Shown: one piece after another, positions 3,174 through 24,589 of the stretch
Layout: every line of letters starts with the position of its first letter
Position numbering within the stretch: the stretch's first letter is position 1
Assembly (NCBI GenBank): GCA_008632985.1
Contig: QPGO01000257.1
Coordinates: 62,001-87,058, forward strand
DNA: 25,058 nt
Source: Psammoneis japonica
Lineage: Eukaryota
Direction of reading: 5' to 3'
Made by a program: the position numbers and the translations under genes
The notes under the pieces: model-generated
The model's database searches: none
Told to the model about the DNA's origin: nothing
What the model saw: only the letters and a program-made list of their open reading frames with translations

Positions 3174-3637
3174 TGTCCGTTGAAACTGATTGTACCCTGG
3201 AGCCTTAGCAAGGAAGATTGTGGTGACAAAACAGGTGCAACGACCCGACAGAAGCTGCTCCGTGATCGGTGACATCCTTATTTCGGTGCGACATATAGAC
3301 TCCGCCCTTGGGAGTTTGGAGTTTGCCGTTGTCAGAATTTCCAAATTTGAAACTTCCGGCAGTGCACATGTGGACAATGGACAGCTTGCCGAGTTCATTT
3401 TTGGTATGCCAGTACAAAGTTGTGTAGATCTGTACATACCAGTTTCTACGTACGTTTGTACTGCAATGGCAGTTGGACCCATCAGCTCATTCAAATTTGT
3501 ACGGCGACCTACCCGTGCTTGCCGCACTCACAATGGTGATGATACGACGGCGTTGTTTGTACTCTGACGCTACCTCTCCTCATCATATCTCCCCTTACCG
3601 TGGAGTTTAAGAATGTAACTGACAATCGCTTCAAGAA

Positions 3638-3981
3638 AATGGCCGGTTGTGACCGGGTCACAGGGGTTTTGTTTCGCCATGAAAAGACGCCGTTGGACCC
3701 ATCAACGTGACGTACAATGGTCGGTGTTGACATTGAGACGACAAGTTGACCCTATTTGAAGTGTCTTTAGCGCTGTCATGCGTTGGCATGCAGCATGGAA
3801 GACTCAGCAATGGCCGGTCGTGACCGAGTTGCAGGGGTTTTGTTTCGCCACAAAAAGACGCCGTTGGACCCATCAACATGACGCACAATGGTCGGTGTTG
3901 GAATTGCGACAATGCATTGATCCTATTTGAAGTATCCTTGGCGGTGTTACGACGTCAGTGTTCAGCATGGAAGACTCAGCA
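3638..3981 (+). repeat. Tandem duplication, 171-bp unit x2
   Basis: AATGGCCGGT...AAAAGACGCCGTTGGACCCATCAAC...CCTATTTGAAGT...CAGCATGGAAGACTCAGCA starts at 3638 and again at 3809. Confidence 0.9.
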
Positions 3982-4204
3982 GTTCTCAATGTGGTGGCAT
4001 GATGGTGGAGTTAGCTGGAGGCCAAGGAGGACTTGCCCTGAATGTGTTTCTGTGGATGCAAGAACCGCAAATGACGCATTGGCCCCATTGGAAGTTGCTT
4101 GAGCAGCACTGTGGCAAACACAACCGGTGTGGACGACTCAGCAGAGCTCAAATTGGTGGCATGACAGTGAGTTCAGCCTGATCCCAAGGAGGGCTTGTTC
4201 TGAA
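3973..4204 (+). repeat. Second, more diverged direct repeat (~70-bp core, ~162-bp spacing)
   Basis: GACTCAGCAG..CTCAA..TGGTGGCATGA...CCAAGGAGG.CTTG..CTGAA occurs at ~3973 and ~4135. Confidence 0.7.
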
Positions 4205-5933
4205 AAGGTCGCTCATCCAGGAACTGTGACTGGCTGCTTTGTCGTCCTTTTCTCCATGCAGCAGCAGTTTAGAGGGCTCTGCTTTGTGGGTGCAAACAAG
4301 CAACACTTCCAAAAATGTTTGTGGTTGTGGATGTCAACCAGTCACATGACAAATCTGTGACTGAGATGGAAATGCTGGAGAGCTGTTGAGTCGGCGGCGT
4401 TGTCCTCTTGTTGGACGAGCTAGAAGTCTCATCATTTGCTCTCCTGCTGCAGAGAGCATTGTGTGAATTGAACAGCAACTTGACACAGGAGATGACAGTG
4501 ACATTGGTGGAGGAGTTGGATGTGGTTGTCATTTGAGAATGATTCACAGTGGGGGGCGCAGGCCTCTGTTACGACCCAACAACATGCAAACAGCTGTGCA
4601 GTCCATTGAAGCTTCTGACCAGCTTTGAAGGCGACACATTTTTGTCTGTCAATGGACCAACCATCCACATGTTGTGTGACAACAATGTTTTGGCATTTTT
4701 GCTTTACATTCACAGTGTGCCAGCAACGCCATTTGCTCTCTCGCAAACTCTTCGTGCTTCGTGTTGTTCTCGTGTTGGAGCTCGCAGAGTTCGTGATGTT
4801 CGTGTGCTTGCATGAGAAACTGTCGCATGTAGAAGCATGTTGACTTTCCACTGGTGTGCCAAAAATGAAACTCGGCAAGCTGTCCATCGGCAATCGGCAT
4901 GTGTCCCACCCCTGCACAGGGAAGAGCACAATGGATGCACCGGCAATTTGGGCGTTCATGAAATTTTCATGTGCTGTTGTTCAACAAAATTTGGCATTGT
5001 TTGCACACAAAAAATGGTGTTGGCAGAGACAATTGAAGGCAACACCAAAGGCTTTGTTCTTTCCTTCACTTCTGACAGTCATCACTTTGGTGTCGCCACT
5101 GCCCGCCGGCCTTGGAGCACGTTCCAGCCCCAGGTGACGTGCAAAACGATGCTCCCTTTTGAGCACAATTTGTGCGAGCTTTGCACTTTGAGGTCGTCAA
5201 TTGAGGGCACTTGTGAGTTCTGGCTTTTGTGTTTGATTGGAGTGCAAACATTTGCGCAACTTTTTTCATCAGCACTCAAGCCCTCACAGGGTGTGTTGCA
5301 AAAATTTTTCTGTGGCGGAAATGATGCTGGCTGCATGTCAGACCAGCCTCCACTTGGGCCACGACTTTGCCCCCGTTGCATCACATGAGCGGCATGACAG
5401 ATTGTGCTGCCAAGTGTGGCAAGTGTGGAGATGGCCTGGGAACAGATGTTTTCATGCGCTGCACCATGATTTCTTGCATGCACTTTTTTTCACATTCCAT
5501 TTGTTCATTCTTTCAAACACAAGGCCTTTTTTGTGTTCTGTTTTTGACTTTTCTGTGGAACATGCCCTCGCACACTCCACATCAAAGTGTCAGCGATCGG
5601 AGTGCGATGGGGTCACACTCCGTTCCGACAACCAAGACAGCGGCACTCCATTTTCATGTGGAATGTGTTGAGGCCTCTTTGCATTCCATCATGACCAAGA
5701 AGAATGTCAAGCCTGTGTCTTCTGTGCACAGCAGCACTCCATGCACAGGAGGACAGAGGTCAACGCACTCTCACATTCTCTGGCATCGAAGTGTGATGAT
5801 GCCAACACGCTTGTGTCATTTGGCACACAGCATGGAATGAGAACATTGCAGCCAAGGCAATGAACATCGGCATGGTTCACGACACCACTGCTTGAATTCT
5901 CTCTGTTCATCTCTCTGTCACTGCGATGATTCA

Positions 5934-5957
5934 AACAACAACAACAACAACAACAAC
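5934..5957 (+). repeat. (AAC)8 microsatellite
   Basis: Eight perfect AAC units. Confidence 0.9.
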
Positions 5958-8025
5958 ATCAAGATGGGCAGGGGATGGGGGCGTTGTCATGGGGGCCCCA
6001 GATTGCACCTGAGTTTTTGTGTCATCTTTTGGTCACAGAAAATGTTGTTCAATTCATTCATTTCTGAATTTGCATCAAATTCTCTGTTGCATTTAGCACA
6101 ACAATGCAGAAGTGATGGTTGAGGTCCTCAAACAGAATTGGAACGAGAATCCTGAAATCTGCACTTGCCCCATTCATTGCAACATGGCACACACTCAAAC
6201 ACACACTTTCAAAAATGAGTGAAGCAACAGTTCGAACCTCAGGAGTGACCGATGGACACAGAAAACAATGTGGAAAACATTTGCAGTCACATTTGATGTT
6301 CATTTGACAACACCTGGCAAAACATCATTTGGCTCTGCATGTTTTCTTTTTCGGTGTAGAACACACGACGATTGACGCCAGAGGAGAGGAGTCTCATTGG
6401 ATGCAGTTTTTTCTCTCACTTCTCACCCGCTCTTGCACAAACCAGAAACACAACAGAGCTGCAGCATCTGAAGCAACAACAGCAAAGAATGGCAGCACAT
6501 GATTGGGCGGTTTGATGGGTGATGATTGTGGCATGCTTGACGGCAAGTTGTGATGGGATTGCTCAGAACTTCAAAGTTTGCTTGCACTTGCATTTTCTTT
6601 TCTCTCTTTGCTGTTGAGGTTTGTTTTCCACAGGGTTCTGATTCCAAGCATGGCTGCTCTCTGCAGCTGAGAGAGTGGTGCTGCATTGCTGCCTGCTCCA
6701 TTTTCTAATGACAGAGATGTGTGGGCAGTCGTGTCCATCAACAGCCTGCAAGTGCCACCTTTTTTGTTTTTTCTGCAACCTTGAACCTGTTGCTCACTTT
6801 TTACTTTGACTCATTGTGCTCATGTTTGGGAAAGGTTGAGGCACCCCTTGTCATCCAGCAGGCAACCAAGATCATCAAAAGAAGAAATGCATCATTCTGA
6901 GATTCGGCTGAGCGGTGCTTCGAAGCAATCGGTCAATCAAGGGAGGGCAGAGCACCAGCATGGGTGGAGCAGGAGTTCTTGTTCAATGGAAATGCAGCAG
7001 CAGCACCATGGCTTCACTTTAGAATTTCACTTCATTCCACTGCAAGCTCTGCATCACACGCTTTGGTTGAGTGCAAGGAATCCACAAACAGAGGGCAGCA
7101 AAAGGAGTGGCAAATGGAGCACAAAACAAATGGCCTCTTTTCAACAAAAGAAGTGATGAAATGGGCACAGGCATCACTCATCTAATCAAAATTGTGCAGT
7201 GCACACATCCAGTTTTTGTTGTTTTTTGCATCATTTCTGCAAGCACTGCATTGCTGACGAGTGCAAACAATGTCATTTCTTGTTTGACCTCAAATGCTGT
7301 GTTTGTTGTTTCCGCAAAGGAGTCCATGAGACATGAAGACACATCGGACATTTTCCCACACAAAGGCCTGACATCATCTTCCACCAATTTGGTTGAGCCT
7401 TTGACGCCAAATGAGGCCGGTGTCAGGCAGCTCTGATGCACGCCTGCCTGGAAAGACCTCTGTGACATCGCTGCTGATGCAAGTTCAGATCACACTGCAT
7501 GTTTGAATGAAAGTCATTTGAGTGCAGTTGTTGCATTTCTTTGTCAACAATGTCTGACAAATGAGCAATTGTCCAGAACAACAAATGACAAACACTGGAT
7601 CGGTGACCCCTGCACGCAAATTGCGCCCCAGGTGCAGAGTGTGGCACATGCGCTGGAATGTGATGCAGATTTTGACGAGGCTTTTTTGTTCTGCACCCTG
7701 TTGCTCGCAATCCATTTTGAGGCCTTTCTTGAAGGAGCCACACACACATTCCATGTGATTCCATGGATTCTTGTTTCCTGTGCAAGTGTGATGAAGCTCA
7801 GGAATTTTGCACTTTGCAGCATGGGCACAGGTTGTTTTTGTGCCCTGCACACAGAAAAAATCCAAAGCAAGCTCTGGGATGCACCCACTCTCCATTGTGA
7901 GTCTGTGTGTTGACCATTCTTTGCATGTGCACTTGCACGCACCCAAAGGCAACAGCAATCTTTTGGCTCTCAGAGTCATTTTGGCCAGCGCAGCAGCCAA
8001 ATTCAATTGGCGCTGATGTGAGCCA

Positions 8026-8421
8026 GACGCGTTCCAGCCCTAGGTGGGAGCTCGTAGTGCTGACGTGTGACAACAATAATTTTTATCATCCGTCGTATGT
8101 TTCGTACGTAGATTTCTACGTGTGACATTTAAAAAAAATTGTCCAGACTCGCTGTTTTGCGAAGCCCCAGACGTTTTATGTGACATATTTATAGAAACAA
8201 TAATGCGCCAGTTACATTCTTCAATGTCTGAAGAATGTAACTGGCTAAGTAAAAAATGATGTACTTCAATCATGTGCGAGTTTGTGCGTTCGCAAAATTG
8301 CCTCATTTTCTGTTGGCGATCATTGACATTTAAATTACCGTATAATTTTACTACGGAGCTCGCACGTAGAAGTCTACGGGCCCAATGTCACACGGATTCC
8401 CACCTACGTCTGGAACGCGTC
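8026..8421. mobile_element. MITE, 396 bp, with imperfect ~24-bp TIRs and 4-bp TSD GCCA
   Basis: Left end is GACGCGTTCCAGCCCTAGGTGGGA; the reverse complement of the right end is GACGCGTTCCAGACGTAGGTGGGA. GCCA flanks both sides (8022-8025, 8422-8425). It has subterminal GTGTGACA motifs and an AT-rich non-coding interior. Confidence 0.85.
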
Positions 8422-9445
8422 GCCAACAGAAAATTTTGTTTGGCACTTCTTGTCATGCGACATGTGAAACGCAAAAATTCTGGGTGTCTTTCGAAATCAC
8501 ATCCTTGCAATCTGCAGTGCCCTCAAGAAAGCAATGGCGATGCATTGTTTTGCATCATGGGAGGATGCTCAGCCAAACCCCAGCTGCCCTTGCATCAGGA
8601 TCAACTGGTTGTGGGCCAGCATCTCCACAGGTGAATTTTTTTTGTGGGTTGCAGCGCCGCAGCACTTGAGAACAAAATCAATGACGCCAACAGCATCTGC
8701 ACCAGAGCAGCTGATGTTGCAGCAAATGGGGGTTGGGGAGTGTCAATCTTTGTCCCACTTTGGCTGATGCCATCCAAAGCAAACTGTCAAGTTTGCAATT
8801 GGCAATGTCTCAGAGTGACACATCCCTGAAGTTTGCCAATCAGGCTGGAGCCTTTGGGTGGCAAAAGACAAGATTGTGGCTTTGTCCTTCATCAGAGCAT
8901 GCAATGCAGTGATCCAGACCTCCATTCTCATGATGATGTTTTTTCCTTTTGCAGTTAAAAATTCAATGGTTTCAAACCTCATCAGTTGTGTGCGTGGCGA
9001 CAATTTGTCATCCATGAAAGATGAGCTTTGTTGCTGTGGAGCCCCCCAACCATCCTGTGAGGTGACACCACTCACTGTGAAACAGCCAACCCTTTCCCTG
9101 TGAGAGTGCCCGCCCTCCATTCCTGCAAAACCTGCAAATTAAAATCATTTTTTGTGTTGCAAAATGTCCTGTTTTGTTGTTTGCATTTCATTTGAATGAT
9201 GCTGACAGAGACAACGCCATGATGCCTGAGGCTTGCCATCCAGAGACACAAGCCCAGCGGAGATGCTGCTGACAACACTCCAGTCTGCCCCTGCATGGGA
9301 GTTGAGCTGAGCAGCAGGGGACCAAAGAAGGTGTCATGCGCCAGTGCAAAGGGGAGAGGCAAAGCCTGTCAGACAAATCTGGACAAGAGCAGTGCCAAAA
9401 AAATGCAGGCAAAGAGCCGTCTTCTCCACCCTGCATGTCTCACCT

Positions 9446-9718
9446 TTTGCCATCAAGAGCATGTGTGATGGCTTGGTTGTGCATGATTTGAAGGGAGGGT
9501 TCTCCACAATTGCCACCTCGAACCACAATGGCATTGGCAACTTGCAGTGTTGTCTCAATGTCTTGTGCATTTGACGCTTGTCAATTCCGGAGCAAGAGAC
9601 CGACCAGGCCACAACAACGGTGGGTGTTGCAATGGTCCTCAACAAATGCCTTGGTTGCAGTGGCCCACAATTGAGAGTCGTCTTGATCAAACTCAGCATC
9701 CATCATTCCTTGCAGTGT
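9446..9718 (-). pseudogene. Pseudogene fragment paralogous to the juxtamembrane extracellular domain of the FG-GAP gene (22664-22930)
   Basis: My translation TLQGMMDAEFDQDDSQLWATATKAFVEDHCNTHRCCGLVGLLLRN*QASNAQDIETTLQVANAIVVRGGNCGEPSLQIMHNQAITH aligns with SLVGMDTEFDTVDTDLWTATTELFVEDFYNTRRRRRGLSTLLRVLQVSNIQNMETTLSVTKTSVVRNGNGTNSSLQVIYNQAVTY. This frame is not in the ORF track. Confidence 0.85.
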
Positions 9719-11741
9719 GTGGCAAGAAAAGTGTCATTGCAAGAAACAAACACCCGTCAGATTCTTGCTGAGAACAACTGACAAGTTGAGACACAAGATG
9801 ACTGCAGCTCCTGCTCCAGATGCATCGGACTTGCCACCAACGGATGTGGACAACATCAATGATGTGGGCACACCTCCAAGCCATGCACAGCAAACATTGA
9901 CCTCTGCTCCACCAAATGAGGGAGGCTCACAAACAACAAGTGCCACTTCTGAAGCTTCTGCAGCTGACTCAGGATCGCCAACCCCAATGGTCACAACACA
10001 CTCATGTTGTGGACAGTTCATCAATGACACATTTGGAGTGTGGACCAGAAACAGCAGAGAGAAGCTCAAGCATCCTCCAATGGGTTGCCTCCCCACTCTC
10101 TGCCTCTGCAGTCTTTCTGGATCAGTGCACAAGAATTGGAGAAGATGGGTGCAACATCAGCAAACACATGAAAAACAAGTGAACCTCTTTTTGCACATGC
10201 CACCTTGTTTGAAGATTGTCATTTGTGGTGACTTGCGATGACTCTAGATGCAAAACTCTGACATGCGCAATCAATGCTGCAGAAAAAATTGTGATGTGCG
10301 TGCACACAACAACACGCTGTTTCGGCATTCTGGATGATGATTTTTTGACGTGGCAGATTCGTGACAGCACACTCACGATCTTGAAACTCAAGCGATGCCC
10401 CCCATTCAAAAACCGTCTTTGCCAGCCATGAGGACAGCAGGTCTCGCCATGCATTGAGCTGCTGTCATGGGCCAATGGGGCAATGTCTTTCACCGCCATG
10501 GAAGGTTGCCGGCTTTGCAGATTTTGAGATCACACGCAGAGTCCACGTGAATCACAACAGCGCACACTCTCATTTTTTTAATTTTGGGGAGAGGGTGCAC
10601 TGTCATGAAGTGTGCAGGAAATTGCACATGTAAAAAAAAATGCTGAAAATGCCGCAGACCAATGGGCTGTGAAGCATGAAGAAATTTTTTTAAATGAGGG
10701 TGGGTCACGTGTCAAGTGCTGCATGAAGTGCACTGCACACATGCAAAGACACACGCGCGTGAGTGGGGAAGACAAAGTTAAAACCAAGTTCAAATTGATG
10801 ACCATCAAAAGGAAACCAAACCATGCATCACATTTTGACCCCCAACCAAATTAAACATTGCACGCATTTGATCGAAGCTTGTGCAAGAAAAGCAAGTGAG
10901 ACATCAGATGAAATGCACAAAACAGTTGAATTTTGTCGAGCACTTTTGCTGGCAATTTTTAAATTTTGCTTGTCAACAATTTTAACAGCGCACATTAAAA
11001 AATTGACAAAGGAAAGTGGAAACCACCACATTGCAGCCTCTGATGTTTGTGTTCCACACCAATCACATCAGGAGGCAGGAGGAGCATTTGGTGCAAGGGA
11101 TGGAAAGAGCCTGGATTTTTGATGTTCAGGCTCAAGGGACCAGAGCATTCTGAAATTGCTCATGTCAGAGGCGAGCTTTTCAAATCCTTTCCACATGAGC
11201 TTGTGTCACATTTGACATTGTTTGTTGATCTGAGCACCTCGTGTTTGGTGTTTGATGGTGTCTTGAGTGTTTCCAAGGCACTTGTCCAAATCCTCAACTG
11301 TGGGCAAGAGTCTGCAGGACGACTCTGTTGAGACAGGTGGTGCACTGGAATTTCTGATGTGGCACTTGAGTTCATCCAACATGCTGCTGATGCAACAAAC
11401 CCTTGGGATGCAGCGTCAAGAACTTGACATGATCAGCTGGCAACCCTGTCTGAGCTGTTGGGTGAGTCTGCTGTGGGCAGGTTGCAAGTGAAACACCAAC
11501 TCAAAGTCGGCACCACAGCCCACCTCAAGCTGAATGACTGCATCAATCATGCCACTGGCTCTGAAGAAGAGGAAAATGAGTTTCAAAAAAGAAAAACCCA
11601 TCGCGGCATTGGCACTCTCCACAATCGCCTTTTCATTTGGCTTCACATCTGCCAAGTCTTCCTTGAGAGCAACAAGCAATTTCCTGCTGCTGATCCTCTC
11701 CTTCAATCATTCTCTTTTGTCTTCCATGGAACCACAAATGC

Positions 11742-12533
11742 TCATCTGTCTGAGGTTTGACTCTCTGTCAAACAGTTCACCAAAGTTTGTTGCTTCATCT
11801 GTGGCCTCTGGCTGGAAATCAATTGACAAAAGGTCATGATTGCCTGCACCCATTCCTGTTTCAGACAGTCTTGTCTTTGTTTCTCTGTCTTTGGGCAACA
11901 TTTTTCCCACAGTTGTTTGCAGACAAGCCAACTCCTTGTCCAGTTTCTCAACAAATGTTTCATCACCAATCTCTTGGTGGTGGCAAAAAGCCACTCGTTG
12001 TTGCCTCTGTGCAGCTCTTTGCACCTTTGGCATTTCTTGGCTTTTGGCACAGCACAGATGTCAGATTTGTGTGGGCAGCATGGGCAAAAGTGTTCAGCCA
12101 CCTCACAAGCTCCACCTTTGTGAAGGCCCTTTTGATGGGCAATGTGGTCACCAGTGTGTGATGGTTTCAGAGTTTCTGTGTCTTCATTCAAAGATTCCTC
12201 CCCACAGTCATTCATGAATTCATGGAAATCTTCAAACAGATTGAGTGTCTCATGGCTCTCCTGACCTGTCATCACTTGAAATGGGAAACAGCAGCAGCTG
12301 GATTGTGCTGTTGCTGCACTGCTTGTGACCACCAAGCTGGCAAGTTTGTCTGTTGGTTTGACACCTGCCATGATGTTCTTGTCACACTTGTTGAGTGTCA
12401 TGCTGTCAACAGCAGCACTCACTTTTCCACTCTTCTCCTGGCTGCTTTGTCCCACAGGCGGTGTGCTTTTGACAATGTGGCGAGTGTTGGGGTTGAACAT
12501 TGGCACGAGTGCTTTCCCGTCTTGTGCTGCCAC
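11742..12533 (-). pseudogene. Degenerate DDE transposase fragment with RAG1/Transib-like motif order
   Basis: QSSCCCFPFQVMTGQESHETL resembles RAG1 [22 protein letters not shown]. Downstream TGD..AHQKGL.KGG.....FCPCC resembles the second catalytic Asp plus CxxC region. The third catalytic region is not recognisable. Confidence 0.45.
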
Positions 12534-12949
12534 CTCAACTTTTTTTGCTGTGCCACACAGAGCTCAGGTCAATGGCATCACACCATGAAAATGCCTGGCA
12601 CCACCACTTTCCACTGACTGAAGAACCGCAACTCCTGAGTGTGACAGCTTTGATCCAGCAAGATCCATGGCTCTTAGAAGTTTAGAGGGTTTGAGTGCAT
12701 TCTCCCCAAACCATTTCCAAGGCCGCTTGACATGCTTCCACAGAAGTCATCTGAGAAAACAGTGCCCACCACTGTTGTGTTGGTCTTCTTCATGCTGACC
12801 TTGTTGCATTGGCAGTTTGACCACTCTTCTAAAAAGGTTCGCAGCTCTTCCTTTGTGTCCACTTCATTGCTTGATGCACCCTCATCTTCCTCAGATTCTT
12901 CCTCTTTTTTTTTTCTTCAATGTCGTCACCATCATCTTCTTTTTCTTCT

Positions 12950-13135
12950 AAAGAAAAAAAAAAACAAAAAACAAAAAACCAAACCCAATTTAAAGTGCTG
13001 TTGCACCTTTGCCCAGCAACGCTGGCTCCAGCCAACCCACACCTCCAGTGCACCCAGTGAGGGGTGCGGCAGAAGCGGACTTGATTGGCCTGAATCAGCA
13101 TCTCCCTGAGGAGATGCCCGATGGAAATGGTTGGT
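12950..13135 (-). mobile_element. 3'-terminal fragment of a LINE related to the element at 19420-20780
   Basis: The reverse complement aligns with ~20610-20780 (stem-loop, GGCCAAT, CTGCCGCACCC, GTGCACTGG, CAGCACT) and ends in a T-rich (TTTTTG) tail. Confidence 0.7.
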
Positions 13136-13184
13136 GCAGAGAGCACAATGACACTTGAAGTTTGCTGCAGCATTGCTGGTGACA

Positions 13185-13616
13185 TGCAGCATGCCTTGCT
13201 GCTGGACAACACGGCGAGACCGTGCACAAGCCTCTTGCCCGTGGCAATGCAGCATTGTCAACACGCACCTGGGAAGCATGACCACAGGAGGGCGTGGCTC
13301 CAGGTCTCAGGCAATTCCAGAAGGGTGCTAAGAGAGCATCCGTGTGAAGCACACCAGCCCGTCGTCTGGCCCATGATGGTGGCGTGATTCCACATGATGA
13401 CATCACTCGTGCACAGCGCGTGATGGCTTGATTCGCACGATCCACAATGCGAACGCACGATCGATTTGATGCGATCCAAATGCGAACGAACAGGGATTTG
13501 GCAAGATTCCCTGTTCACACGATCCCATTTTCTCTGCTCTAAACTAGCTCACAATTTTCACAACGACAAAGTCGCAACACATCTTCTTTTTCAGCGCCCA
13601 GCACACACACAGGGCA
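13185..13616 (+). repeat. 5' LTR (432 bp)
   Basis: TGCAG...GGGCA; about 90% identical to 18054-18486. Confidence 0.95.
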
Positions 13617-13677
13617 CAGTGATGTTGCTCCCGCATGTTGTGCGAGGCAACGAAATCTACAGAAACAAAACTACGAA

Positions 13678-14754
13678 ATGTTGGCAGGACCGACAAATCT
13701 TAAAACGACCATGAAGAAGCGGATTGAGCCGCCAATTCCGTTCGCACGGCCGGAGAAGAAAGAGCTGCAGCAGGGCGAGTGCCAGACGTTCAAGCTGCGT
13801 AACAACCCTGCTGATCCGGACAGTCCAACACACGAGATGGGCATTCCGCACCTTTCCACGGCTACATGCGAGACACTCCTGATCTTTCTGCGCAACGTAG
13901 ATCGCGTGCATGAAGGACAAAACATCACGACTGGGCCAGCGAAATTTGCCCTCATGCGTGACCCACTGCAAGGTGATGCTCTGACGTCATTTAACAATGC
14001 CGCTGACAAGCAGGCATCCCAAACCAACGCCACGCACGCAGCATGCGTCGCGAAGCTAAAGGAAAGCATCTTCCCACATGGGGCGGCACTGTTGCAGAAG
14101 CGTTGTCTGAGGCGCTTCATGCGCAAGCCCGCAGAGGTTTCTGCTCGTGACTGCGTCGCGAGGGCTGTTGAAATTAACGGCTGTGTCTCTCAGTTTCCAC
14201 CCGTGATGGAGGATGGAGAAGCACAGGCACCATCACCCAATGACAAACTGTGCGACATGTTCGAGTGCGGTGTGCCGAACGCATGGCAGAAATTCATGAC
14301 GCCACAGAATTTTGACCCGTTGGCGCATGCTGTCACCGAATTTGTGCAGTTCTGCGAGCGCATTGAGCAGGTCGAGCTTGCCGAAGGTAACCTGGACCAA
14401 CATGCCAAGGTTCCACGCAAGCGGGGACGTAGAACGGACAATCCTGAGTCGTTGATTACGACCCAACGGAACACCCAGAAGTCATGCATGCCACACGGGA
14501 CCAACTGTGGACATCATGCGGAGGATTGCCGTCAGCTCAAGCACCACACAAAACGTGTCAAGACTGGACATTCCAATGACGGAGGCAGCAAACCCAGTGC
14601 AAAACCCTGGAATGAGGAAGACATTGATGCTCTCATCAGATCGAAGGTCGAGGAGTTCTTTGCCAATGCTCAGAAAAAGCGCAAGGCACGCGAGGAGGAG
14701 CTCAATCACTTCCGCGACCTCAACTCAAGCGATTCCGAAGATTCGGGCACTTGA
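13678..14754 (+). pseudogene. gag: Gag (358 aa, open frame but hypermutated; contains no Tyr)
   Basis: It follows the 5' LTR and has a LRRFMRKP/EIN...FPP segment, a zinc-knuckle-like CMPHGTNCGHHAEDC and an acidic C-terminus. Confidence 0.85.
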
Positions 14755-17700
14755 GAAGGGGGCCCACACGACACAGGCAGCTTCAATGCATTGGACGAAT
14801 GCACAAATGAACAACTGAATTACCATCGTACACGTGTTGCAGGCCAATCCTGCAAACGAGTTAAAAAGACTCATCTTGCTCCAATCTTGTTCACAACTGT
14901 GAATGCCAAACATGGCAAGGGCAAGACTCAAACCATTAAGGCACTGCCAGATAGTGGCGCCAGCAGCACTCTACTCGACAGTCGACACTGCAAACGTCTG
15001 CGAAGCCATTCAACGGCTGAGACAAACTGGACTACGGTAGCAGGCTCGTTTAGTACGTCTAACGACTGTACCGTTAAATTTCGGTTACCAGAATTATCCG
15101 AAACTGCAGAACTTAAACATACCGTCCACGTACACAACGGAAAGTTGGGCAAGTACGATATGATTATTGGACGTGACATTCTGGAGACACAAGGCATTGA
15201 TATTGTCTTCTCTAAACAGATGATAGAGTGGCCATTAGTCAATGGAGAAGTACCAATGAGGCACGTAGATGCTACGGTAGAAACCTCCTTCTATCTTCAA
15301 GATCCAGAAGCCTTATCTTCGGAAACCAACCGGATTTCGCGTATTTTAGACGCTAAGTACGCGCCGGCCTGCCTTGAGGACATAACGCGATAGGCAATAG
15401 GATTTTTCTATAGTTCAATAAAACGACCTTTTGGCATTATTGAAACGCCATGAGTCCTTATTTGATGGGACATTAGGAGAATGGAAGGGAGAACCCTACC
15501 ATATCCAACTCAAGGAGGGTGTAGAACCATACCACGCTCGTCCGTATAAAGTACCTCGTGCGTACGAAGCTACGCTACGTAAAGAAGTAGAACGCCTAGT
15601 GCGCATCGGTGTTCTCAAACGCGTTAACCGATCCCAATGGGCAGCTCCATCATTTATCACACCGAAGAAAGATTTAACGGTGCGCTTTATTGATGATTTC
15701 AGAGAGCTGAATAAACGGATCAAGCGATTGCCTTGTCCGATTCCTCATGTCCAAGACATGCCACTTGAGCTCGAAGGCTTTGTGTGGGCCACATCGCTGG
15801 ACCCCAAATGTGGGCTGTCATCACATCCGATTGGATGCTGACAGCAAGAAGCTCTGCACGCTCATCTTCCCGTGGGGCAAGCATGAGATGCAGGCATTGC
15901 CCATGGGATTGTGCAACTCGCCAGACATTTTCCAAGAACGCATGTCAGGCTCATTTGAAGATCTGTCGTTCGTTCGAACGCACTTAGATGACCTTCTCGT
16001 CGTGACGAAAGGCACCCATGAAGATCACCTCAACAAACTTGAAGAAGTTTTGTTGAGGGTCCAGAAAGCAGGACTAAAAGTCAACGCAACTAAATCTCAC
16101 TTCTGTCAAACCCAATTAGAATGCTTGGGTTGTCCAGTTGACAGAGACGGAACACGACCAACACCTGATAAAGTCGACGCCATTGAGCGAATCGCGACCC
16201 CAGCCAATGAACGCGACCTGCGCTCATTTGTTGGCATGGTGAACTGCCACCGTGACATGTGGACCAGACGTTCTGAAGTCTTGGCTCTGCCAACACGACT
16301 CGTGAGCGAGACTGTTGAGTGGAAGTGGACGTCCGTTGAAGACGAGGCGTTCGAAACCGTTGAACGGGTGACATCGGATGATGTTTTGTTGTCACATCCT
16401 GATTTTAACAAACCCTTTGAGGTGCATGCCGATGCCTCTAAATGTCAATTGGGAGCAGTTGCATCCCAAGACAATAAACCCATCGCCTTTTACACCAGAA
16501 AGCTTGGTGGTGCACAATTAAATTGCACAACAACGGAGAGAGAATCGCTCGCCATTGTGGAGACGTTGAAAGAATTTCGAATGATTCTCCTTGGTCATCG
16601 TGCAATTGCACACTGATCATAAAAATCTTGTGCACAAAGCATTCAATGCTGAGCGCGTCATGCGCTGGCGGCCAACATGTGAAGAATGCGGTCCCGAATT
16701 ACGCTGTGTTGAGGGTGCCCACAACCCAGTCGCTGATGCTCTTAGTCGCCTTCGGCTGGCACCCAGCTTGCCTTCCGAGGCCAATCCGGATGTAAAAGAC
16801 ACTCCATCGAGTCGTCCTTTGCATGAAGCTTTTAATGCAGACGTGCAAGATGAGCTGTCTCTGCCTGTTGGCTTCAAGCGCATTCAAAAAGCACAACAAA
16901 AGGACAAGCGCCCACTCTCATCAGCCAAGGACTCGTCCGACCACTCCATTCGCGCGCATCGTGGGGGAGGGTCATCACGACAGTTAATCTGTCACAAGGA
17001 CAAAATCACAGCACCACAGTCATTGCATTGTTCCGCTAACTGAATGGTGCCACAAGACACTGTGTCATCCAGGTGAGACACGCACGGAAATGTCTGTTGC
17101 CCAGCACTTCCATTGGCCTGGCATGAGGTCTACGGTGCATTCTACGTGCGTCAAGTGCGATCGATGCCAGAAGACAAAATGCCGAACGCAGCATTGTGGG
17201 AAGCTGCCAGAAAAGGTCGCAGAGATGATTCCATGGGAGACTCCATGCACAGATGTGATGGGGCCACATAAAATTCAAAGACGCGGAAAGGACACTTTGC
17301 AATTGTGGGCAGTCACAATGATTGACCCAGCAACCGGGTGGTTTGAGATTAAAGAAGTGTCTGCGAAACGCGCAGACGTCGCAGCAAACGTCGTGGAACA
17401 AACATGGCCATGCAGATGTCCGTGGCCAACCCAGGTGGTTCATGACCGTGGGACAGAATTCATGGCAGAATTTAGCCAGATGATTAAAAATGACTGTGGG
17501 ATTTTGAAGAAACCCATGAGCAAACGGAATCCACAAGCGAGTGCCATGGTGGAACGTGCACACCAGACACTTGGCAACATGGTGTGTTCCTTTTCAGCAC
17601 AGGATGTGGAGCTGGACGAAGATGACCCATGGAGTGGCATCCTCTCCGCAGTGGCCTTCGCTGTTAGAGCTGCGGCACATGCGACCACGCATGCAAGTCC

Positions 17701-18013
17701 CATGCAATTGGTCTTCAGACGTGATGCGGTTTCATCTGTTGCTCATCGTGCCAAGTGGAAGCACATAGAAACCAGAAAGCAGAAGCTTGTCCACTTGAAC
17801 AACAAACGTGAAAATCAGAAACGCAAGGAGTGTCAACATGCTGCAGGGCAATTGGCACTTGTCAAACAGGAACAATCCTCGAAATGCGGTTCTGACAGCC
17901 ATGCAGGACCCGCCAGAATTGTCCGCGTGTGTGACAACGGCACGTTGCGTGTCCAGAACGGAGCGCTGACAGACACGTGCAATCTACGGCAGATTGCACC
18001 CCATCACCAGTGA
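14755..18013 (+). pseudogene. pol: Pol: aspartic protease, reverse transcriptase, RNase H, integrase; broken by stops and frameshifts (~15391-15421, ~15802, ~16600, ~17035)
   Basis: PR: ALPDSGAS and DMIIGRD. RT: WAAPSF, DFRELNK, LPMGL, HLDDLLV. RH: ADAS..QLGAV, TTTERE, TDHKNL, NPVADALSRL. INT: H..LCHPG..C..C, then D(VMGP), D(RGTEF), E(RAHQTL). No chromodomain. Confidence 0.95.
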
Positions 18014-18043
18014 GACATCCTGTCACTTGACGGCCCTGATCAT

Positions 18044-18051
18044 GGGGGGAG
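18044..18051 (+). other. Polypurine tract
   Basis: GGGGGGAG ending 2 nt upstream of the 3' LTR. Confidence 0.8.
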
Positions 18052-18053
18052 TG

Positions 18054-18486
18054 TGCAGTGTGCCTCGCCACTGGACAACACGGCGAGACTGTGCATGAGC
18101 CTCTTGTGCGTGGCAACACAGTGTTGTCAACACGTGCCTGGGAAGCACGACCACAGGAGGGCGTGGCTCTGGGTCTCAGGCAGTTCCAGAAGGATGCCAA
18201 GAGAGCATCCGTGTGAAGCACACTGGCCCGTCGTCTGGCCCACGATGGCAGCGTGATTCCACACGATGACATCACTCGTGCATGGCGCATGATGGCTTGA
18301 TTCGCACGATCCACAATGCGAATGCACGGTCGATTTGATGCGATCCAAATGCAAACGAACAGGGATTTGGCAAGATTCCCCATTCACATGATCCCATTTT
18401 CTCTGCTCTAAACCCAGCTCACAATTTTCACAACGACAAAGTCGCAACACATCTTCTTTTTCAGCGCCCAGCACATGCATGGGGCA
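18054..18486 (+). repeat. 3' LTR (433 bp)
   Basis: TGCAG...GGGCA followed by TSD GACA. Confidence 0.95.
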
Positions 18487-19419
18487 GACACACACGTTGG
18501 TTGCACCACCACCACAGAGGACAGCTGCATTTGGGAAAAATTCACACAAGAGCCACAAAGGGAGCCAAAAGGAAGACAAAGGAAGAGCGCCAAACCACTG
18601 GCTGTCCCTCATCAAGTGGGAAACCTCATTCAAACCTTGAAGAAATGAAACAATGAAAGATCACTGCATGCAACCGAGAGCTTGATTTGCCAGTGAGAGA
18701 GGGAGAGTTTGCCCAGAACTGGGAGACAAGAAATGGGAGTGCTTGATGATTCGATGAGTCGGTCATCAGGAAAGACATTTTTCACACATGGAAGCTGCAC
18801 CGGATCTTGCACAGAAATGCCGTTGTGCACAGCAAATGGATGGAAATCACTTGTTGCCGAAGGGAGGCTCATGCTCACACTCGTCAGCATCACAGCAGAA
18901 GCAGCGCTTTCACCACACAAGCAGCGAAGGACTTGATTGGCTGATGGGGACAAAGAGAGTCATTGGAAATGGAAGAGCACTGGCGTGAGAAGCTTGGAGA
19001 CTTGACGAAATCTGTGTAGAAAATTTCTTGGATCTGGAGAAAATGATGAAAAGAGTCAACATGCATGCGACCCATGAGGAGTCAATGCCAGTTGTTTTCC
19101 ACTTGGCAACATTGCTTGGCATGCTGAAATGAAGGCACGCCATTGACAGAAAGGGCCAGCATGGTCGTGGGAGACCCAGCAAAAACTGCCGTCTGAGAAG
19201 GGTGACATCAGTGTGAGAGCGCACGCAGAAACACACACAGGGTTTCTTGGTGGGTGGCTGCCGCAGAATTGTTCTTTTTCTTCTAAAGATTCTTCATTGT
19301 TGTCATCTTGTTGGCTTGCCTCTGCCACCATCTTTCCTTCCAGAGCCTCCTTCTCTTTTTTGGGCCACCCTTGTTTTTGCGGTTCATTGCTGCAGCAGCT
19401 TTGCGGTGGTGGGTCATCA

Positions 19420-20780
19420 CATCTGATTTGTGGCGGCATGTCATCCATGAGATCTTTGCTTCATTGACAAGCTTGGAGGCCCAACATGACGGACACCCTG
19501 CAAGCAATGTTGTCGACATGAAGTGGATTAAAAGCCATCAGGATGACAACACTCCTTTTGAGTCCCTCCCATTTCCAGCAAAATTGAATGTCAGAGCTGA
19601 CAGATTGGCAGGTCTGCTTCAGGGTCAATGCACTGGAGATGCCTCAATGGCCCCCCACATGCCCCATTGCTCTGCATTGCCAAACGTCCAGCCGGCATCA
19701 GTGAACTCGAAGTTTAAATCAGTTCTCCATTGCAAAGCTTCCAGCACAGCCCTGATGCAACACATGAAGGAGAAGTGCAGATGGTCTGACTCAGTGCGCG
19801 AATCTGTTGATTGGAGAGTGCATTCCAAACTGATGTCTTGCAACATCCGACGAAAGGTGAGCACCGTGAAATTGGTCCAAGATTTGCTGCTGACGAACAA
19901 GATTATCCACAGACATGATCCCACACGCCCCGACTGCTGCATGCATTGCCAACACCCCCTTGAAGATGGGGATCACATTCTGCGTTGCGCTCACAATGAA
20001 TCATGGCGGTGCACGTTTCTCCAAGGATTGCGGAAGAAATGTGATGACATGCATGCACCCCTGTCTGTGCGAGACCTGTTGTCACATGCCTTGGAAGGTT
20101 GGTTCAACAAGGAATTGCTTTGTTCTGCCCACGTCCATCACAGCATCACAGAGTTGTTTCGATCTCAAGACGACATCGGTTGGCGTCACATTTTCAGCAG
20201 GTGTGTTTCTTCATTGTGGAACAAGTCACAAATGCCACACTTGGTGTCCTCTGGCTTGTGTTGCTCCTTGTCCGATAAAGACAAAAGATTAGACTGGGCG
20301 GCAACAATTGGCAGTTGCGTGTGGTCACAATGGCGGGAATTGTGGGACTCCCACAATGACGCAGTGCACGGACATGATTCCGAGACGAGAAAGTCTTTGC
20401 AACGATGGGGTGCAGAGGCGGAGGTTAAAGAAATTTGCTCAAGGGCAGACGAGCACTTGGCCCGTGACTGAGCAGAGTTGTTTGATTCAGCAGATGAACA
20501 TCTCACCCATTCCACCCACAGACTCCGAAATTGGCTCGCCGCGGCAAAGCCAATGTTCAAGTCGAGCATCCGAGAGGCCCGGCGTCCAGCTGTCAGAGGC
20601 ACGCACACCATTGCAAGCTGCTTTGGTGTGGCATCACCCGAGGGTGATGCCGATCTTGGCCAATTGTTGCATGCTCCTGCCGCACCCAGTGCACTGGGAG
20701 TGTGGGCTGGCTTGTTGCCGGAGTTGCAGGGTGGAAGCGTGGCAGCACTCAAAGTTGGATTTTGGGTTTTGTTTTGATTT
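19420..20780 (+). mobile_element. 5'-truncated non-LTR retrotransposon (LINE with RNase H and C-terminal CCHC; diatom Ambal-like type)
   Basis: RNase H C-terminal motif WIKSHQDD...AKLNVRADRLA, zinc knuckle CMHC..LEDGDHILRC, Q..IGW and W..HN..VHG. There is an internal TGA at 20469; the ORF ends near TIASCF, followed by a 3' UTR and T-rich tail. No Tyr in the 387-aa ORF. Confidence 0.8.
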
Positions 20781-21360
20781 GTGGTGGCATGCTTGATGCT
20801 TCATCTCCAGCTTCTGTGTGGGGCCAATCAACAATGTGTGGTTGACTTCATGCTGACACCTCACACTGCTGCACTTTGCCTTGCCACCAAGGAGATGCTT
20901 CTCCTTGTCCCACAGGTCACAGTTGTGGCACAGAACATGTGGGCAATCTCAAAATGCAGTGCACCTGTTGATGCCACAGTTGCAGCAAGCAACAACAGCA
21001 CATCCCCTTCTTTGAAGCATGCAGCTGGTGGATGGCCATGTGTGAGAACTCTGGCTTGGCTTGGCTGCTCTGCTCTTGCCCTTGAGACCGTTGGGGAGCT
21101 GGGGGGTGGCTGAGCCAGAATGTCCAGCAATTCTTCCAGCAAGCCTCTTGCTGGCATGCAGTGCAGCCAGAGCCATTGTGCTCATCTCATGTCTCTTCTG
21201 CATCGGCATGTTCCGCATCTCGTCTGCTCTTTTTGGAAACTGGGCTGGCAATTTCTGCAGGTTCCCACGCAGGAGGATGCACTGAGAATGTTGACGTCCC
21301 CAACCCAAATCAGAACACCGTCTTAGCCAGTTCTGTTTCGGTGAAAAACGGACTTGACTC

Positions 21361-21419
21361 TTAACTGATCAGGTGCATTTTTTGTCAACACATTTGCAGC
21401 AATGCGCCTGATCAGATAA
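21361..21419. repeat. 19-bp imperfect inverted repeat with 21-nt spacer
   Basis: TTAACTGATCAGGTGCATT vs the reverse complement of AATGCGCCTGATCAGATAA (17/19). Confidence 0.75.
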
Positions 21420-21825
21420 GAGTCAAGTCAATTTTTGCAACAACTGTGAGCAAACTGCTAGTGGCAGTTTCAGTAGATTCTACGAAGAGCCATAAGTAAT
21501 TTTGGCGTTTTCCGTGAGGGGTCATTTTCGAAAGATTCCTACCATGTCCTCCTCTGGAGAGGTGACGGAGACCGGCTGTCATCAACGGCCGGCTTCCGGA
21601 TGGCATTTATGGGGTCATCTCAGAAATGACTTGAAAACCGATCAATAAACACAAGATGACCTCTGGGCAATAGAAATCTAATAAGTCATTGCCAATGGCA
21701 TTTTCGGAAATACTCTAAACGAACACTCTTCACACACTTTTTATGTTGTGCAGCTTTGGCAAGAGCGAATTACAAAATGAGTTCGCATCTGCTTTAGAGC
21801 GACAAGGATAGCTACTACCGGCATC

Positions 21826-24460: not shown

Positions 24461-24589
24461 ACAACTTTAGCCCTTTCCATCTTTGCCATGTACGGCAGTT
24501 GCTTCGTGCACCACTGCGGGTGTGGCATGAAGAAAAAACAGCTTTTTCGAACAATGTAATTAGGATGACTGAATTTACCAGTGTGTGCA

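Follow-up and report, generated by a model that had tools for sequence, protein, structure and literature searches.

A probable TpA-specific transition process acting on integrated, silenced mobile DNA of Psammoneis japonica

We analysed a window of 25,058 nucleotides of Psammoneis japonica DNA (GenBank assembly GCA_008632985.1, contig QPGO01000257.1, positions 62,001 to 87,058 of the forward strand), and the end states within this single window make it likely that silenced mobile DNA undergoes a DNA-level, TpA-specific transition process after its integration. The rate of this process is at least two orders of magnitude above that of background substitution and about 16 times that of CpG decay in the same DNA, and the process ends sharply where the mobile-element domain ends.

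Results

Loss of TA from the mobile-element domain

Between positions 3640 and 21360 there are 175 TA dinucleotides (observed/expected ratio, O/E, 0.15), and the O/E values of CA, TG and CG are 1.66, 1.63 and 0.56, respectively; the left and right flanks have TA O/E values of 0.61 and 0.45. Along the window the depletion comes in sharply bounded blocks, and the longest TA-free gaps are 1679 bp from position 10996, 1264 from 4830, 1105 from 9140, 898 from 20426 and 858 from 7183. The saturated blocks, defined as 4000-8020, 8430-13184 and 18054-21320 (12,043 bp in total), retain 37 TA (O/E 0.05; over 200 mononucleotide shuffles the mean was 800 and the lowest count 748); TG and CA are at 1.7-1.8 times expectation in them, and their CG O/E is 0.37. 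A mild shortage of TA is seen everywhere (O/E 0.65 in the normal parts); if TA occurred at the density of those parts, the 1679-bp run (10996-12675, within block B of Table 1) would have a probability of ~2e-34. Other steps are unchanged (O/E of AA 1.18, AG 0.99, AT 0.88 and TC 0.98). TA O/E rises and falls with CG O/E (rho 0.81, n=50) and runs opposite to TG/CA (rho -0.91), so the process tracks CpG depletion, a sign of long-term cytosine methylation that serves here as a proxy only. G+C goes slightly up as TpA is destroyed.

These values confirm the near-complete loss of TA over ~17 kb that an earlier note on this DNA had described, and they support its statement that the flanks are normal and the change is confined to mobile-element DNA. 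Its outline has to be redrawn in places: two pieces of the domain, 8026-8421 and 14821-15712, are fully normal, the LTR element still has 10 TA per kb in its mutated interior, and another depleted block begins at ~24576, beyond the limits of 3640-21360 (at 24501-25000 the O/E is 0.13 for TA, 0.35 for CG and 1.71 for TG/CA, with a TA-free gap at 24576-24962).

Table 1. Features of the window
Feature	Position	Strand	Basis or remark
Class C GPCR gene (ANF_receptor + 7tm_3)	360-3527	-	Pfam 7tm_3 E 3.6e-29, ANF_receptor E 1.2e-4
Two 171-bp tandem units, partly mutated, left domain edge	3638-3981	.	TRF
Saturated TA-free block A, old repeat DNA	4000-8025	.	Composition, ORF scan
Weak FAD_binding_8 relic	7795-8013	+	Pfam E 4e-4, 20.9 bits (cut-off 22)
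Unmutated very high-copy MITE inside TA-free block	8026-8421	.	TIRs, k-mer depth
Saturated TA-free block B, repeats of unassigned type	8422-13184	.	Composition, ORF scan
5' LTR of Ty3/gypsy element	13185-13616	+	TG...CA ends; 3 TA remaining
Gag-side interior of Ty3/gypsy element, mutated	13617-14820	+	TA O/E 0.2-0.3
Island inside Ty3/gypsy element, unmutated	14821-15712	+	Protease + N-terminal part of RT; TA O/E ~1.0
RT-RNaseH-integrase part, mutated, frameshifts	15713-18053	+	Conserved-Tyr columns
3' LTR of Ty3/gypsy element	18054-18486	+	Purine-rich tract just before
Saturated TA-free block C	18487-21324	.	Composition
LINE ORF2 C-terminal relic in block C	19287-20468	+	0 Tyr in 394 aa; protein homologs
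FG-GAP_2 repeat protein gene, right flank	22457-24460	+	Pfam FG-GAP_2 E 4e-36
Next TA-depleted block, continues past window end	24576-25058	.	TA O/E, TA-free gap

The genes of the window are intron-poor, a database search gave no protein nearly identical to theirs, and the look-alikes lean weakly towards diatoms; the GPCR gene, which makes up the left flank and has normal composition, contains a single in-frame stop at 1716 that probably lies within a short intron, and the FG-GAP_2 gene is normal in composition apart from its final 295 bp (24144-24439), which are TA-free. The two 171-bp units differ by 22 events, among them four CA/TG, four TA-versus-TG/CA and four CG-versus-TG/CA differences. 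The MITE has 24-nt terminal inverted repeats (8026-8049 and 8398-8421, 92% complementary) and 28 TA, and the CG O/E of its 500-bp window is 1.39. The LINE relic has 1528 matches among the library proteins (E<=1e-3; the best at 7e-51); two of the six long matches scanned have an Exo_endo_phos domain and one has RVT_1. The earlier list of repeat types thus stands for the Ty3/gypsy LTR element and for one LINE relic, but the transposase relic that it included was not found in the 143 of 153 ORFs of >=60 aa that were scanned, and its "gene duplicate" corresponds to a single sub-threshold Pfam match, the FAD_binding_8 relic outside which block A has no recognisable coding capacity.

Timing and direction of the changes

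Both LTRs of the Ty3/gypsy element are bordered on their outer side by the sequence GACA (5' of the 5' LTR and 3' of the 3' LTR), a candidate 4-bp target-site duplication. The LTR pair shows 31 difference events, and in 13 of them one LTR reads CA where its partner reads TG; the remainder are two TA versus CA, nine CG versus TG/CA, four other A/G and three other differences or indels, and only one TA is common to both LTRs, versus 21 CG. Because the LTRs were identical at integration and are now CA versus TG at 13 sites, the changes post-date integration, which supports the proposal that the process acts on genomic DNA.

The direction of change can be read from conserved residues. In pol outside the island, 25 conserved Tyr columns now hold 11 His, 11 Cys, one Trp, one Ala and one Tyr (22/25 are His or Cys), which confirms that TA became TG or CA by A:T>G:C change at TpA on either strand, the polarity first put forward in the earlier note; inside the island all five conserved Tyr are retained, as TAC. 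The integrase ORF has no Tyr in 341 aa (homologs, 4.0%), all nine of its Tyr columns that are conserved among 40 homologs have changed (four His and five Cys), and its other changes include V>A (GCA) five times, I>M three times and L>P (CCA) twice. Tyr-free relatives number 0 among 120 Ty3 pol homologs and 0 among 150 LINE homologs, and 78 related loci have TA O/E values of 0.56-1.18, with 2 of 1276 500-bp windows below 0.2. The idea that relatives of these elements might themselves be TA-free with His or Cys at these positions is therefore not borne out: they and the internal island are TA-normal and keep Tyr.

The island could be the result of gene conversion or of an assembly chimera within a high-copy family. 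That it and the MITE are unmutated means either that both pieces are very recent or that the process comes in episodes or has ceased. A comparison of reads with the 15 kb as a whole listed 97 places with C>T or G>A, and 40 of 209 places were seen individually; this is fewer than would be expected if most other copies of the LTR family had kept TA at every site that is mutated here, so some mutated states may be common to several copies.

Copy number and preferred sites

Is the process induced by repetition? The summed k-mer depth of the MITE is 105,189, versus ~31 for unique DNA, a ratio of ~3,000 that very roughly corresponds to at least a thousand copies, and the MITE is untouched, whereas TA-free blocks of near-single-copy k-mer depth are saturated. 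Copy number is therefore not the trigger, "repeat-induced" in the sense of RIP does not apply, and age and chromatin state fit better.

Both strands are affected equally and sites independently: TG/CA counts in the blocks are balanced (451/454, 519/529 and 339/353), and runs tests gave z values of -1.6, -0.9 and -0.5. Surviving TA lie in TTAA, CTAA or TTAG in 47/78 cases versus 40/345 in normal DNA (p 2e-18), and in ATAT, GTAC, ATAC, GTAT, ATAG or CTAT in 1/78 versus 139/345 (p 3e-14). The excess of products per kb favours the strand with the 3' pyrimidine at ATAA/TTAT sites (5.1 versus 1.6), and the same strand is favoured at ATAG/CTAT (6.5 versus 0.0) and GTAA/TTAC (8.0 versus 3.8). With coding flanks and islands standing in for the ancestral composition, R-TA-Y contexts appear to be the first to go and the targeted A tends to precede a pyrimidine (TAY); TTAA, CTAA and TTAG are the slow contexts. 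This early clearing of TAY and persistence of TTAA, CTAA and TTAG is a new detail.

Discussion

Proposed process and alternatives

In the process that we favour, one of the two A:T pairs of the palindromic 5'-TA-3' would become G:C, yielding TG or CA, and neither product would any longer be a target. The agent would be an enzyme brought to chromatin that is silent and methylated. Our leading guess, and the likeliest candidate, is an adenine deaminase of the TadA/ADAT2-3 type; on DNA it would produce hypoxanthine, which is then copied as if it were G. This family naturally acts on U33-A34 in tRNA, which would fit the T-A requirement. Such changes destroy coding capacity: Tyr codons all turn into His or Cys, ATA into ATG or ACA, GTA into GCA and CTA into CCA, and stop codons TAA and TAG are removed while none is created.

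A modified base at TpA could instead be the primary lesion, for example thymine in R-T-A oxidised by a TET/JBP-type enzyme to 5-hydroxymethyluracil (or a base-J-like derivative), or an N6-modified adenine. In that case mispairing or error-prone repair in silent chromatin would yield the transition as a by-product, and it would not be a dedicated defence. TA>CA can be read as T>C in R-T-A, A-centred and T-centred chemistry give identical products, the tight link with CpG depletion (above) suits a by-product of a chromatin mark, and dinoflagellate 5-hydroxymethyluracil prefers TpA and TpC. We nevertheless consider this rather unlikely, since TC is not depleted and saturation at >=100 times background is very high for a mispairing by-product.

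Modified bases also cause motif-specific consensus errors, and a long-read assembly with systematic errors of base-calling or polishing at modified TpA might imitate the pattern. However, k=31 contigs at unique depth (31-38) from a public sequencing run (all runs found belong to one sample, probably the source of the assembly) agree without a single difference with six TA-free stretches of 334-1612 bp, at 5036-6647, 6779-7607 and 7578-7983 in block A and at 8397-9094, 11563-12135 and 12263-12596 in block B. Miscalls on one strand would break up contigs of this kind at each site. The TA-free sequence is thus carried by independent k-mer contigs and is not an artefact of assembly; the protein-level pattern and the sharp-edged unmutated islands are also hard to obtain from base-calling, and we regard a technical origin as highly improbable.

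The signature of ADAR, A>G with a 5' U preference (cited in bioRxiv 10.64898/2026.01.13.699255), matches ours, and the targets best characterised in this window are retroelements. One might therefore consider A-to-I editing of double-stranded RNA from transposons, with the edits entering the genome through reverse transcription and renewed insertion. This route is contradicted by the LTR comparison, which places the changes after integration; in addition, sense-strand outcomes are balanced (11 Cys, from coding-strand A>G, versus 11 His, from the other strand), and tandem repeats and unclassified DNA are mutated too. ADAR moreover favours a 3' G, and the 3' preference here is for pyrimidine; we give the RNA route extremely little weight. 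Native TA-poor composition of these families, or selection against TA, has next to no probability in spite of the mild TA deficit of the normal parts, as it is contradicted by the TA-normal island in the same element, by the related loci and by the 270 related proteins that keep Tyr, and the blocks are non-coding relics with frameshifts.

Comparison with known systems

RIP of Neurospora and other Ascomycota likewise wrecks mobile elements in sharp-edged blocks through a burst of dinucleotide-specific transitions at the DNA level, and leakage into neighbouring DNA may possibly be a further likeness. It runs in the opposite direction, however (CpA>TpA, giving AT-rich DNA, whereas TpA is destroyed here), it requires duplicated sequence and a sexual cycle whereas near-single-copy relics are saturated here, and in this window no stop codons arise. 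Deamination of 5-methylcytosine at CpG is a second, slower signature in the same DNA (the low CG O/E of the saturated blocks and the nine CG-versus-TG/CA LTR differences) and contributes to the TG/CA excess, but it cannot remove TpA and is ~16 times slower per site in the same LTRs. ADAR and APOBEC3 share deaminase-driven, clustered transitions that cripple retroelements, and ADAR the 5' U/T preference, but each works on a single strand prior to integration, whereas the changes here are post-integration and strand-symmetric, and APOBEC acts on C, not A. Polymerase eta (phase 2 of somatic hypermutation) makes A:T>G:C changes at A after T, and the earlier note had listed its WA>WG errors as a candidate; AA should then be affected too, and the absence of AA depletion and of AG enrichment speaks against it.

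TadA and ADAT2-ADAT3 deaminate A after U/T, engineered forms (adenine base editors) and some natural ones accept DNA, and TadA's own site, U-A-C, resembles the TAY preference seen here. Natural TadA/ADAT enzymes are not known to be targeted to chromatin domains.

The closest counterpart is in the alga Bigelowiella natans: integrated DNA of giant viruses and virophages undergoes TpA>TpG/CpA hypermutation there, as first reported in a 2026 preprint by Mettrop et al. (bioRxiv 10.64898/2026.01.13.699255), so the earlier opinion that no such system had been described no longer holds. According to that preprint, two integrated viral regions acquired 231 de novo mutations in mutation-accumulation lines, 230 of them A>G or T>C; the GC-biased ones were all at TpA, the rate was ~6e-7 versus 3.5e-10, and RT and DDE domains were over-represented in coding sequences of low TpA. 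Its authors proposed an ADAT2-type adenine deaminase and cite DNA activity of amphioxus ADAT2. There de novo mutations were observed in the laboratory in regions that are still TA-rich (3.3% and 9.2% TpA), whereas the present window, from a different host, offers the end state in saturated retrotransposons and unclassified repeats, together with CpG loss, extended context and LTR-based timing, which the Results and Discussion of the preprint do not treat. The likenesses, as far as the preprint describes its side of them, are A:T>G:C change exclusively at TpA on either strand, restriction to foreign DNA with the remaining genome normal, a rate excess of hundreds- to thousand-fold, genome-wide clusters of TpA-poor, CpA+TpG-rich windows, and no need for repetition (its giant-virus region is single copy). 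The window probably records the same kind of process, here run to saturation on retrotransposons.

Extent and composition of the TA depletion

The depletion of TA in the window is real and striking. The domain, a long stretch of mobile-element DNA nearly without TA, contains 175 TA at an observed/expected ratio (O/E) of 0.15, with CA, TG and CG at 1.66, 1.63 and 0.56, respectively; TA O/E is 0.61 and 0.45 in the two flanks and ~0.6 in both flanking genes. Its edges are sharp (near 3640-4000 on the left and at 21324 on the right) and the pattern inside it is blocky, as listed in the table below. In its three saturated blocks (12,043 bp in total) 37 TA are left, whereas 200 mononucleotide shuffles had 800 on average and never fewer than 748. 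If TA were as dense as in the normal parts, the longest TA-free run, 1679 bp, would have a probability of ~2e-34. Within these blocks TA and CG are the only dinucleotides that fall (O/E 0.05 and 0.37) and CA and TG the only ones that rise (1.81 and 1.71), the other steps being ordinary (AA 1.18, AG 0.99, AT 0.88 and TC 0.98), and G+C is 48.4% compared with 47.1%. Over fifty 500-bp windows TA O/E follows CG O/E (rho 0.81) and runs opposite to TG/CA (rho -0.91). Error-prone synthesis of the polymerase eta type (WA>WG), one mechanism put forward in the earlier note, does not fit the AA and AG values of the saturated blocks, where ApA is not affected.

Features of the window, with their positions, strands and properties
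Feature	Positions	Strand	Properties
Class C GPCR gene	360-3527	-	left flank, intron-poor
Domain	3640-21360		mobile-element DNA nearly without TA
Saturated blocks	4000-8020, 8430-13184, 18054-21320
TA essentially missing	~4000-8040, 8405-~13500, 18000-21324
TA lowered, not gone	13500-14820, 15712-18000
TA at normal level inside domain	8041-8405, 14821-15712		the second is the island in the Ty3/gypsy element
Exact-match stretches (k = 31 contigs)	5036-6647, 6779-7607, 7578-7983, 8397-9094, 11563-12135, 12263-12596
FAD_binding_8 match, sub-threshold	7795-8013	+	E 4e-4, 20.9 bits (cut-off 22); ends just before MITE
MITE	8026-8421		396 bp, 24-nt terminal inverted repeats
Ty3/gypsy LTRs	13185-13616, 18054-18486		432 and 433 bp, TG...CA ends
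Integrase ORF	16988-18013
LINE relic ORF	19287-20468		1528 library relatives at E<=1e-3
Inverted repeat	21344-21436		36 nt, 89% complementary, 21-nt loop; at right domain edge
FG-GAP_2 repeat protein gene	22457-24460		right flank, intron-poor
Further depleted block	begins near 24576

Is the TA-free sequence an artefact of assembly, as reads carrying TA at these sites would indicate? Contigs built with k = 31 from a public run, at a depth of 31-38, reproduce six TA-free stretches (table) with 0 differences; run and assembly probably share one sample, and so the method of this comparison is independent and the sample is not. If a modified base were miscalled on one strand, k-mer contigs of this kind would be interrupted at each site.

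Elements of the domain and the flanking genes

The Ty3/gypsy element encodes protease, reverse transcriptase (RT), RNase H and integrase in a frame broken by frameshifts, and it has a purine-rich tract before its 3' LTR and GACA immediately outside both LTRs. The LINE relic ORF aligns with the C-terminal 300 residues of proteins of 1200-1950 aa, and among six long relatives scanned an AP-endonuclease domain was present in two and an RT domain in one. The gene duplicate named in the earlier note was not verified; the best BLASTP E value of this ORF against the neighbouring FG-GAP protein is 0.22. The MITE is TA-rich, CpG-rich and wholly unmutated though it lies within a saturated block. The summed k-mer depth of its bin is ~105,000 (105,189) versus ~31 for unique DNA, and its copy number should therefore be, as a very rough estimate, a thousand or higher. 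Rfam and tRNA scans gave 0 matches, and by these tests it is thus not tRNA- or SINE-derived.

Pfam gave no identification for the remaining 9 kb of the domain (ORFs >=60 aa; 143 of 153 were scanned, the other 10 being left-edge ORFs or ORFs that overlap with LTRs and gag). The sub-threshold FAD-binding match (ferric reductase/NADPH oxidase) may be what is left of a host gene that was captured or duplicated, and a sub-threshold YxzE match was taken as spurious. A looser scan (17 ORFs, E<=5) contributed no more than a hint of zf-RVT, and the transposase relic reported earlier was found in neither scan. Self-comparison of the window in purine/pyrimidine code (k = 36) recovered the LTR pair and a 171-bp tandem repeat and no other duplicates.

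The two flanking genes are nearly intron-free; genes of the rhizarian Bigelowiella are intron-rich. The GPCR frame has 1054 codons with one in-frame stop at 1716 (minus strand), which falls within a stretch resembling a short intron, and a second low-complexity stretch near the N-terminus is possibly another intron. The nine differences that the run's contigs carry at 3126-3224 are linked and at half depth (30.6 of 62.3). Transitions and transversions are mixed among them in the usual manner, and they point to a second haplotype and so to a diploid, heterozygous organism. The FG-GAP ORF has no match above 41% identity among 5.8 billion clusters, and its named eukaryotic matches are diatoms. 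Look-alike clusters likewise lean to Bacillariophyta, although these leads are weak and the protein and cluster searches gave no close relative with a name; Bigelowiella natans itself is an unlikely source of the window. The final 295 bp of this otherwise normal gene (24144-24439), just before the next depleted block, are without TA, which may be leakage from that block or chance. The inverted repeat at the right domain edge may be another small hairpin element.

Direction of change from proteins and relatives

When the integrase ORF was aligned with 40 homologs (49-59% identity), all 9 conserved-Tyr columns were found to be changed in the window, 5 to Cys and 4 to His. There is no Tyr in its 341 residues, compared with 4.0% in the homologs, and His and Cys are two- to fourfold over-represented. 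Other recurrent changes also match TA>CA/TG, namely Val>Ala (GCA, 5) and Ile>Met (3), as do Leu>Pro (CCA, 2) and Leu>Ser (TCA, 1). Outside the island, the 25 conserved-Tyr columns of pol hold 11 His, 11 Cys, 1 Trp, 1 Ala and 1 Tyr (adjoining pieces of the pol ORF share 131, 32 and 56 nt, a few columns possibly being double-counted as a result, and positions in the third piece are approximate); mutation has thus affected both strands of pol, coding and non-coding, to the same extent (11 Cys versus 11 His). Inside the island conserved Tyr is retained at 5 of 5 columns, as TAC. The LINE ORF likewise has no Tyr in 394 residues versus 2.9% in 30 homologs; its conserved-Tyr test is weak at ~30% identity, with 3 of 7 loosely conserved columns holding His/Cys and the others Phe/Leu/Ile.

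The same picture would arise if these families were natively TA-free with His or Cys at such positions, an alternative that the earlier note had itself raised against its reading. None of 120 Ty3 pol homologs (lowest 3.0% Tyr) and none of 150 LINE homologs (lowest 0.8%) is without Tyr, the TA O/E of 78 related Ty3 loci from metagenomes is 0.56-1.18, and only 2 of the 1276 500-bp windows in those loci fall below 0.2. The relatives are normal in TA and Tyr, and therefore the families are not natively TA-poor and the window's copies were altered; the Tyr codons kept in the island agree with this.

Timing and rate from the LTR pair

Both LTRs of one insertion are copied from a single template and are identical at the start. 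The pair in the window now shows 31 difference events, which are distributed as follows: 13 have CA in one LTR and TG in the other, 2 have TA versus CA, 9 have CG versus TG/CA, 4 are other A/G changes, and 3 are other changes or indels. Ancestral TpA sites thus account for 15 of the 31 differences, and 1 TA and 21 CG are still common to both LTRs. A CA/TG pair can arise only if an ancestral TA was mutated independently in each LTR, on different strands; since the LTRs were identical at the start, the 13 such discordances place the changes after insertion, in chromosomal DNA. At the left edge, the units of the 171-bp tandem repeat differ by 22 events, among them 4 CA/TG and 4 TA versus TG/CA.

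If strand choice is random, there should be about as many sites with the same product in both LTRs, from which we estimate ~29 ancestral TA per LTR with ~93% of site-copies mutated, a corresponding CpG figure of 15%, and a TpA rate ~16 times the CpG rate. Divergence at sites that are neither TA nor CG is ~0.8% per copy. Judged from LTR divergence, the TpA rate would exceed background by a factor of 100 or more, a lower bound because of saturation.

Several known processes bear on these differences. Decay of methylated CpG to TpG/CpA does occur in the window (CG O/E 0.37 in the saturated blocks and 9 of the LTR differences), where it is a slower companion and does not account for the loss of TpA. 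RNA editing of the ADAR type, fixed by retrotransposition, would act before reverse transcription and is ruled out as the cause by the post-insertion action; both the 13 CA/TG discordances and the balanced strand outcomes go against it. APOBEC editing was rejected, the process being post-integration and strand-symmetric.

Strand, context and copy number

TG and CA counts are balanced in each saturated block (451/454, 519/529 and 339/353), and the two products are randomly intermixed (runs tests z -1.6, -0.9 and -0.5, not significant) with a between-window spread near binomial. The strand-coordinated patches expected of a processive single-strand deaminase were not found by runs tests in the three blocks.

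The TA that survive in depleted DNA (n = 78) are in TTAA, CTAA or TTAG in 47 cases. These contexts make up 40 of the 345 TA in normal DNA (p 2e-18) and 16 of the 88 in the two unmutated islands of transposon origin (p 3e-8); ATAT, GTAC, ATAC, GTAT, ATAG or CTAT account for 1 of the 78 survivors versus 139 of the 345 TA in normal DNA. Comparison of product tetranucleotides at asymmetric sites indicates that the converted A is the one with a 3' pyrimidine: in three site classes the excess per kb favours it by 5.1 versus 1.6, 6.5 versus 0.0 and 8.0 versus 3.8, and in two others the excess is about even. This surplus of products on the 3'-pyrimidine strand points to 5'-TAY-3' as the probable preferred target, with the normal parts standing in for the ancestral composition.

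Copy number is no predictor of mutation; age plausibly is one. Summed k-mer depth in saturated stretches ranges from 41-135 (5004-8009 and 11517-12518), close to the ~31 of unique DNA, up to 1000-2600, and it is 11,000-41,000 in the LTR element. A repeat-induced process, as the earlier note had it, does not agree with saturation of stretches at near-unique depth and an untouched MITE at 105,189. The island is a colinear part of pol (protease and the N-terminal part of RT) with sharp edges, within an otherwise mutated copy; either gene conversion by an intact copy or chimeric assembly of a high-copy family could have produced it. From the island and the unmutated MITE it follows that the process either comes in episodes or has been idle since the two arrived. 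Paralogous contigs differ from the window at 183 transition and 26 transversion places. C>T or G>A differences number just 97 over 15 kb (40 of the 209 places were inspected one by one), and therefore some of the mutated states in the element interior may be common to other copies.

Consequences for coding and annotation

Per kb, TAA drops from 7.8 to 1.7 and TAG from 9.7 to 1.0, and all Tyr codons are gone in the mutated DNA. Because these stops are lost, long stop-free frames are many (75 of >=100 aa in the window) and occur on both strands of depleted DNA. Such DNA is a trap for gene prediction, and annotation fails in it; the mutated elements, having lost all Tyr, are mostly missed by Pfam, and purine/pyrimidine-coded or Tyr-tolerant searches are required.

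Comparison with known systems

The central claim of the earlier note, that mobile DNA is subject to a mutator which works at the DNA level and is specific for TpA, is upheld by the dinucleotide ratios, the LTR differences and the Tyr columns. Its statement that such a system lacks precedent has been superseded: a full-text literature search for TpA hypermutation found one description, a 2026 preprint on Bigelowiella natans (bioRxiv 10.64898/2026.01.13.699255), and the portions consulted of three other papers (PMC4504042, PMC5124317 and PMC9258296) contain nothing about TpA loss in diatom transposons. According to the parts of the preprint consulted, 231 of 302 nuclear point mutations in B. natans mutation-accumulation lines lie in an integrated giant-virus region and a virophage region, 230 of those 231 are A>G or T>C, the GC-biased ones are all at TpA, and the rate is ~6e-7 per site per generation versus 3.5e-10 elsewhere (bioRxiv 10.64898/2026.01.13.699255). 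The same parts describe 124 genomic clusters of TpA-poor, CpA+TpG-rich windows and an enrichment of RT and DDE domains among low-TpA coding sequences, and their authors propose an ADAT2-like DNA adenine deaminase (bioRxiv 10.64898/2026.01.13.699255).

The window is a further case of this very recently described kind of hypermutation, with the same signature carried to completion on retrotransposons. As in Bigelowiella, A:T>G:C change is restricted to TpA (dinucleotides, LTR differences and Tyr columns), occurs on either strand with TpG and CpA as products, and is confined to integrated or mobile DNA with the rest normal (sharp edges and normal flanking genes). New in the window are the proof from the LTR pair that the process acts after integration, its link to the loss of CpG, its preference for TAY and its independence of copy number. 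With a second case, saturated and on retrotransposons, the process looks like a protist genome defence of wide occurrence or else a mutator of heterochromatin, in either case one that raises G+C. The TAY over TAR preference, strand symmetry, CpG-loss link and copy-number independence are handles for an enzyme search, and a naturally occurring enzyme that edits A to G in targeted domains of chromosomal DNA would be of interest to base-editing research.

We consider it possible, while leaning slightly the other way, that a chromatin-guided enzyme converting A:T to G:C at 5'-TAY-3' in double-stranded genomic DNA is common to SAR protists as far apart as Rhizaria and the source of the window, probably a diatom or another stramenopile, as a G+C-directed, duplication-independent counterpart of fungal RIP. 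If so, the window would be its first sign outside Bigelowiella and the first evidence of saturation on retrotransposons, of coupling to cytosine-methylated chromatin and of an extended sequence preference able to identify the enzyme. RIP needs sequence duplication and changes C:G to T:A at CpA, so that TpA and A+T go up, whereas the process in the window works without a duplication trigger (depth data and self-comparison) and in the opposite direction, with TpA lost, CpA/TpG gained and G+C at 48.4% versus 47.1%.
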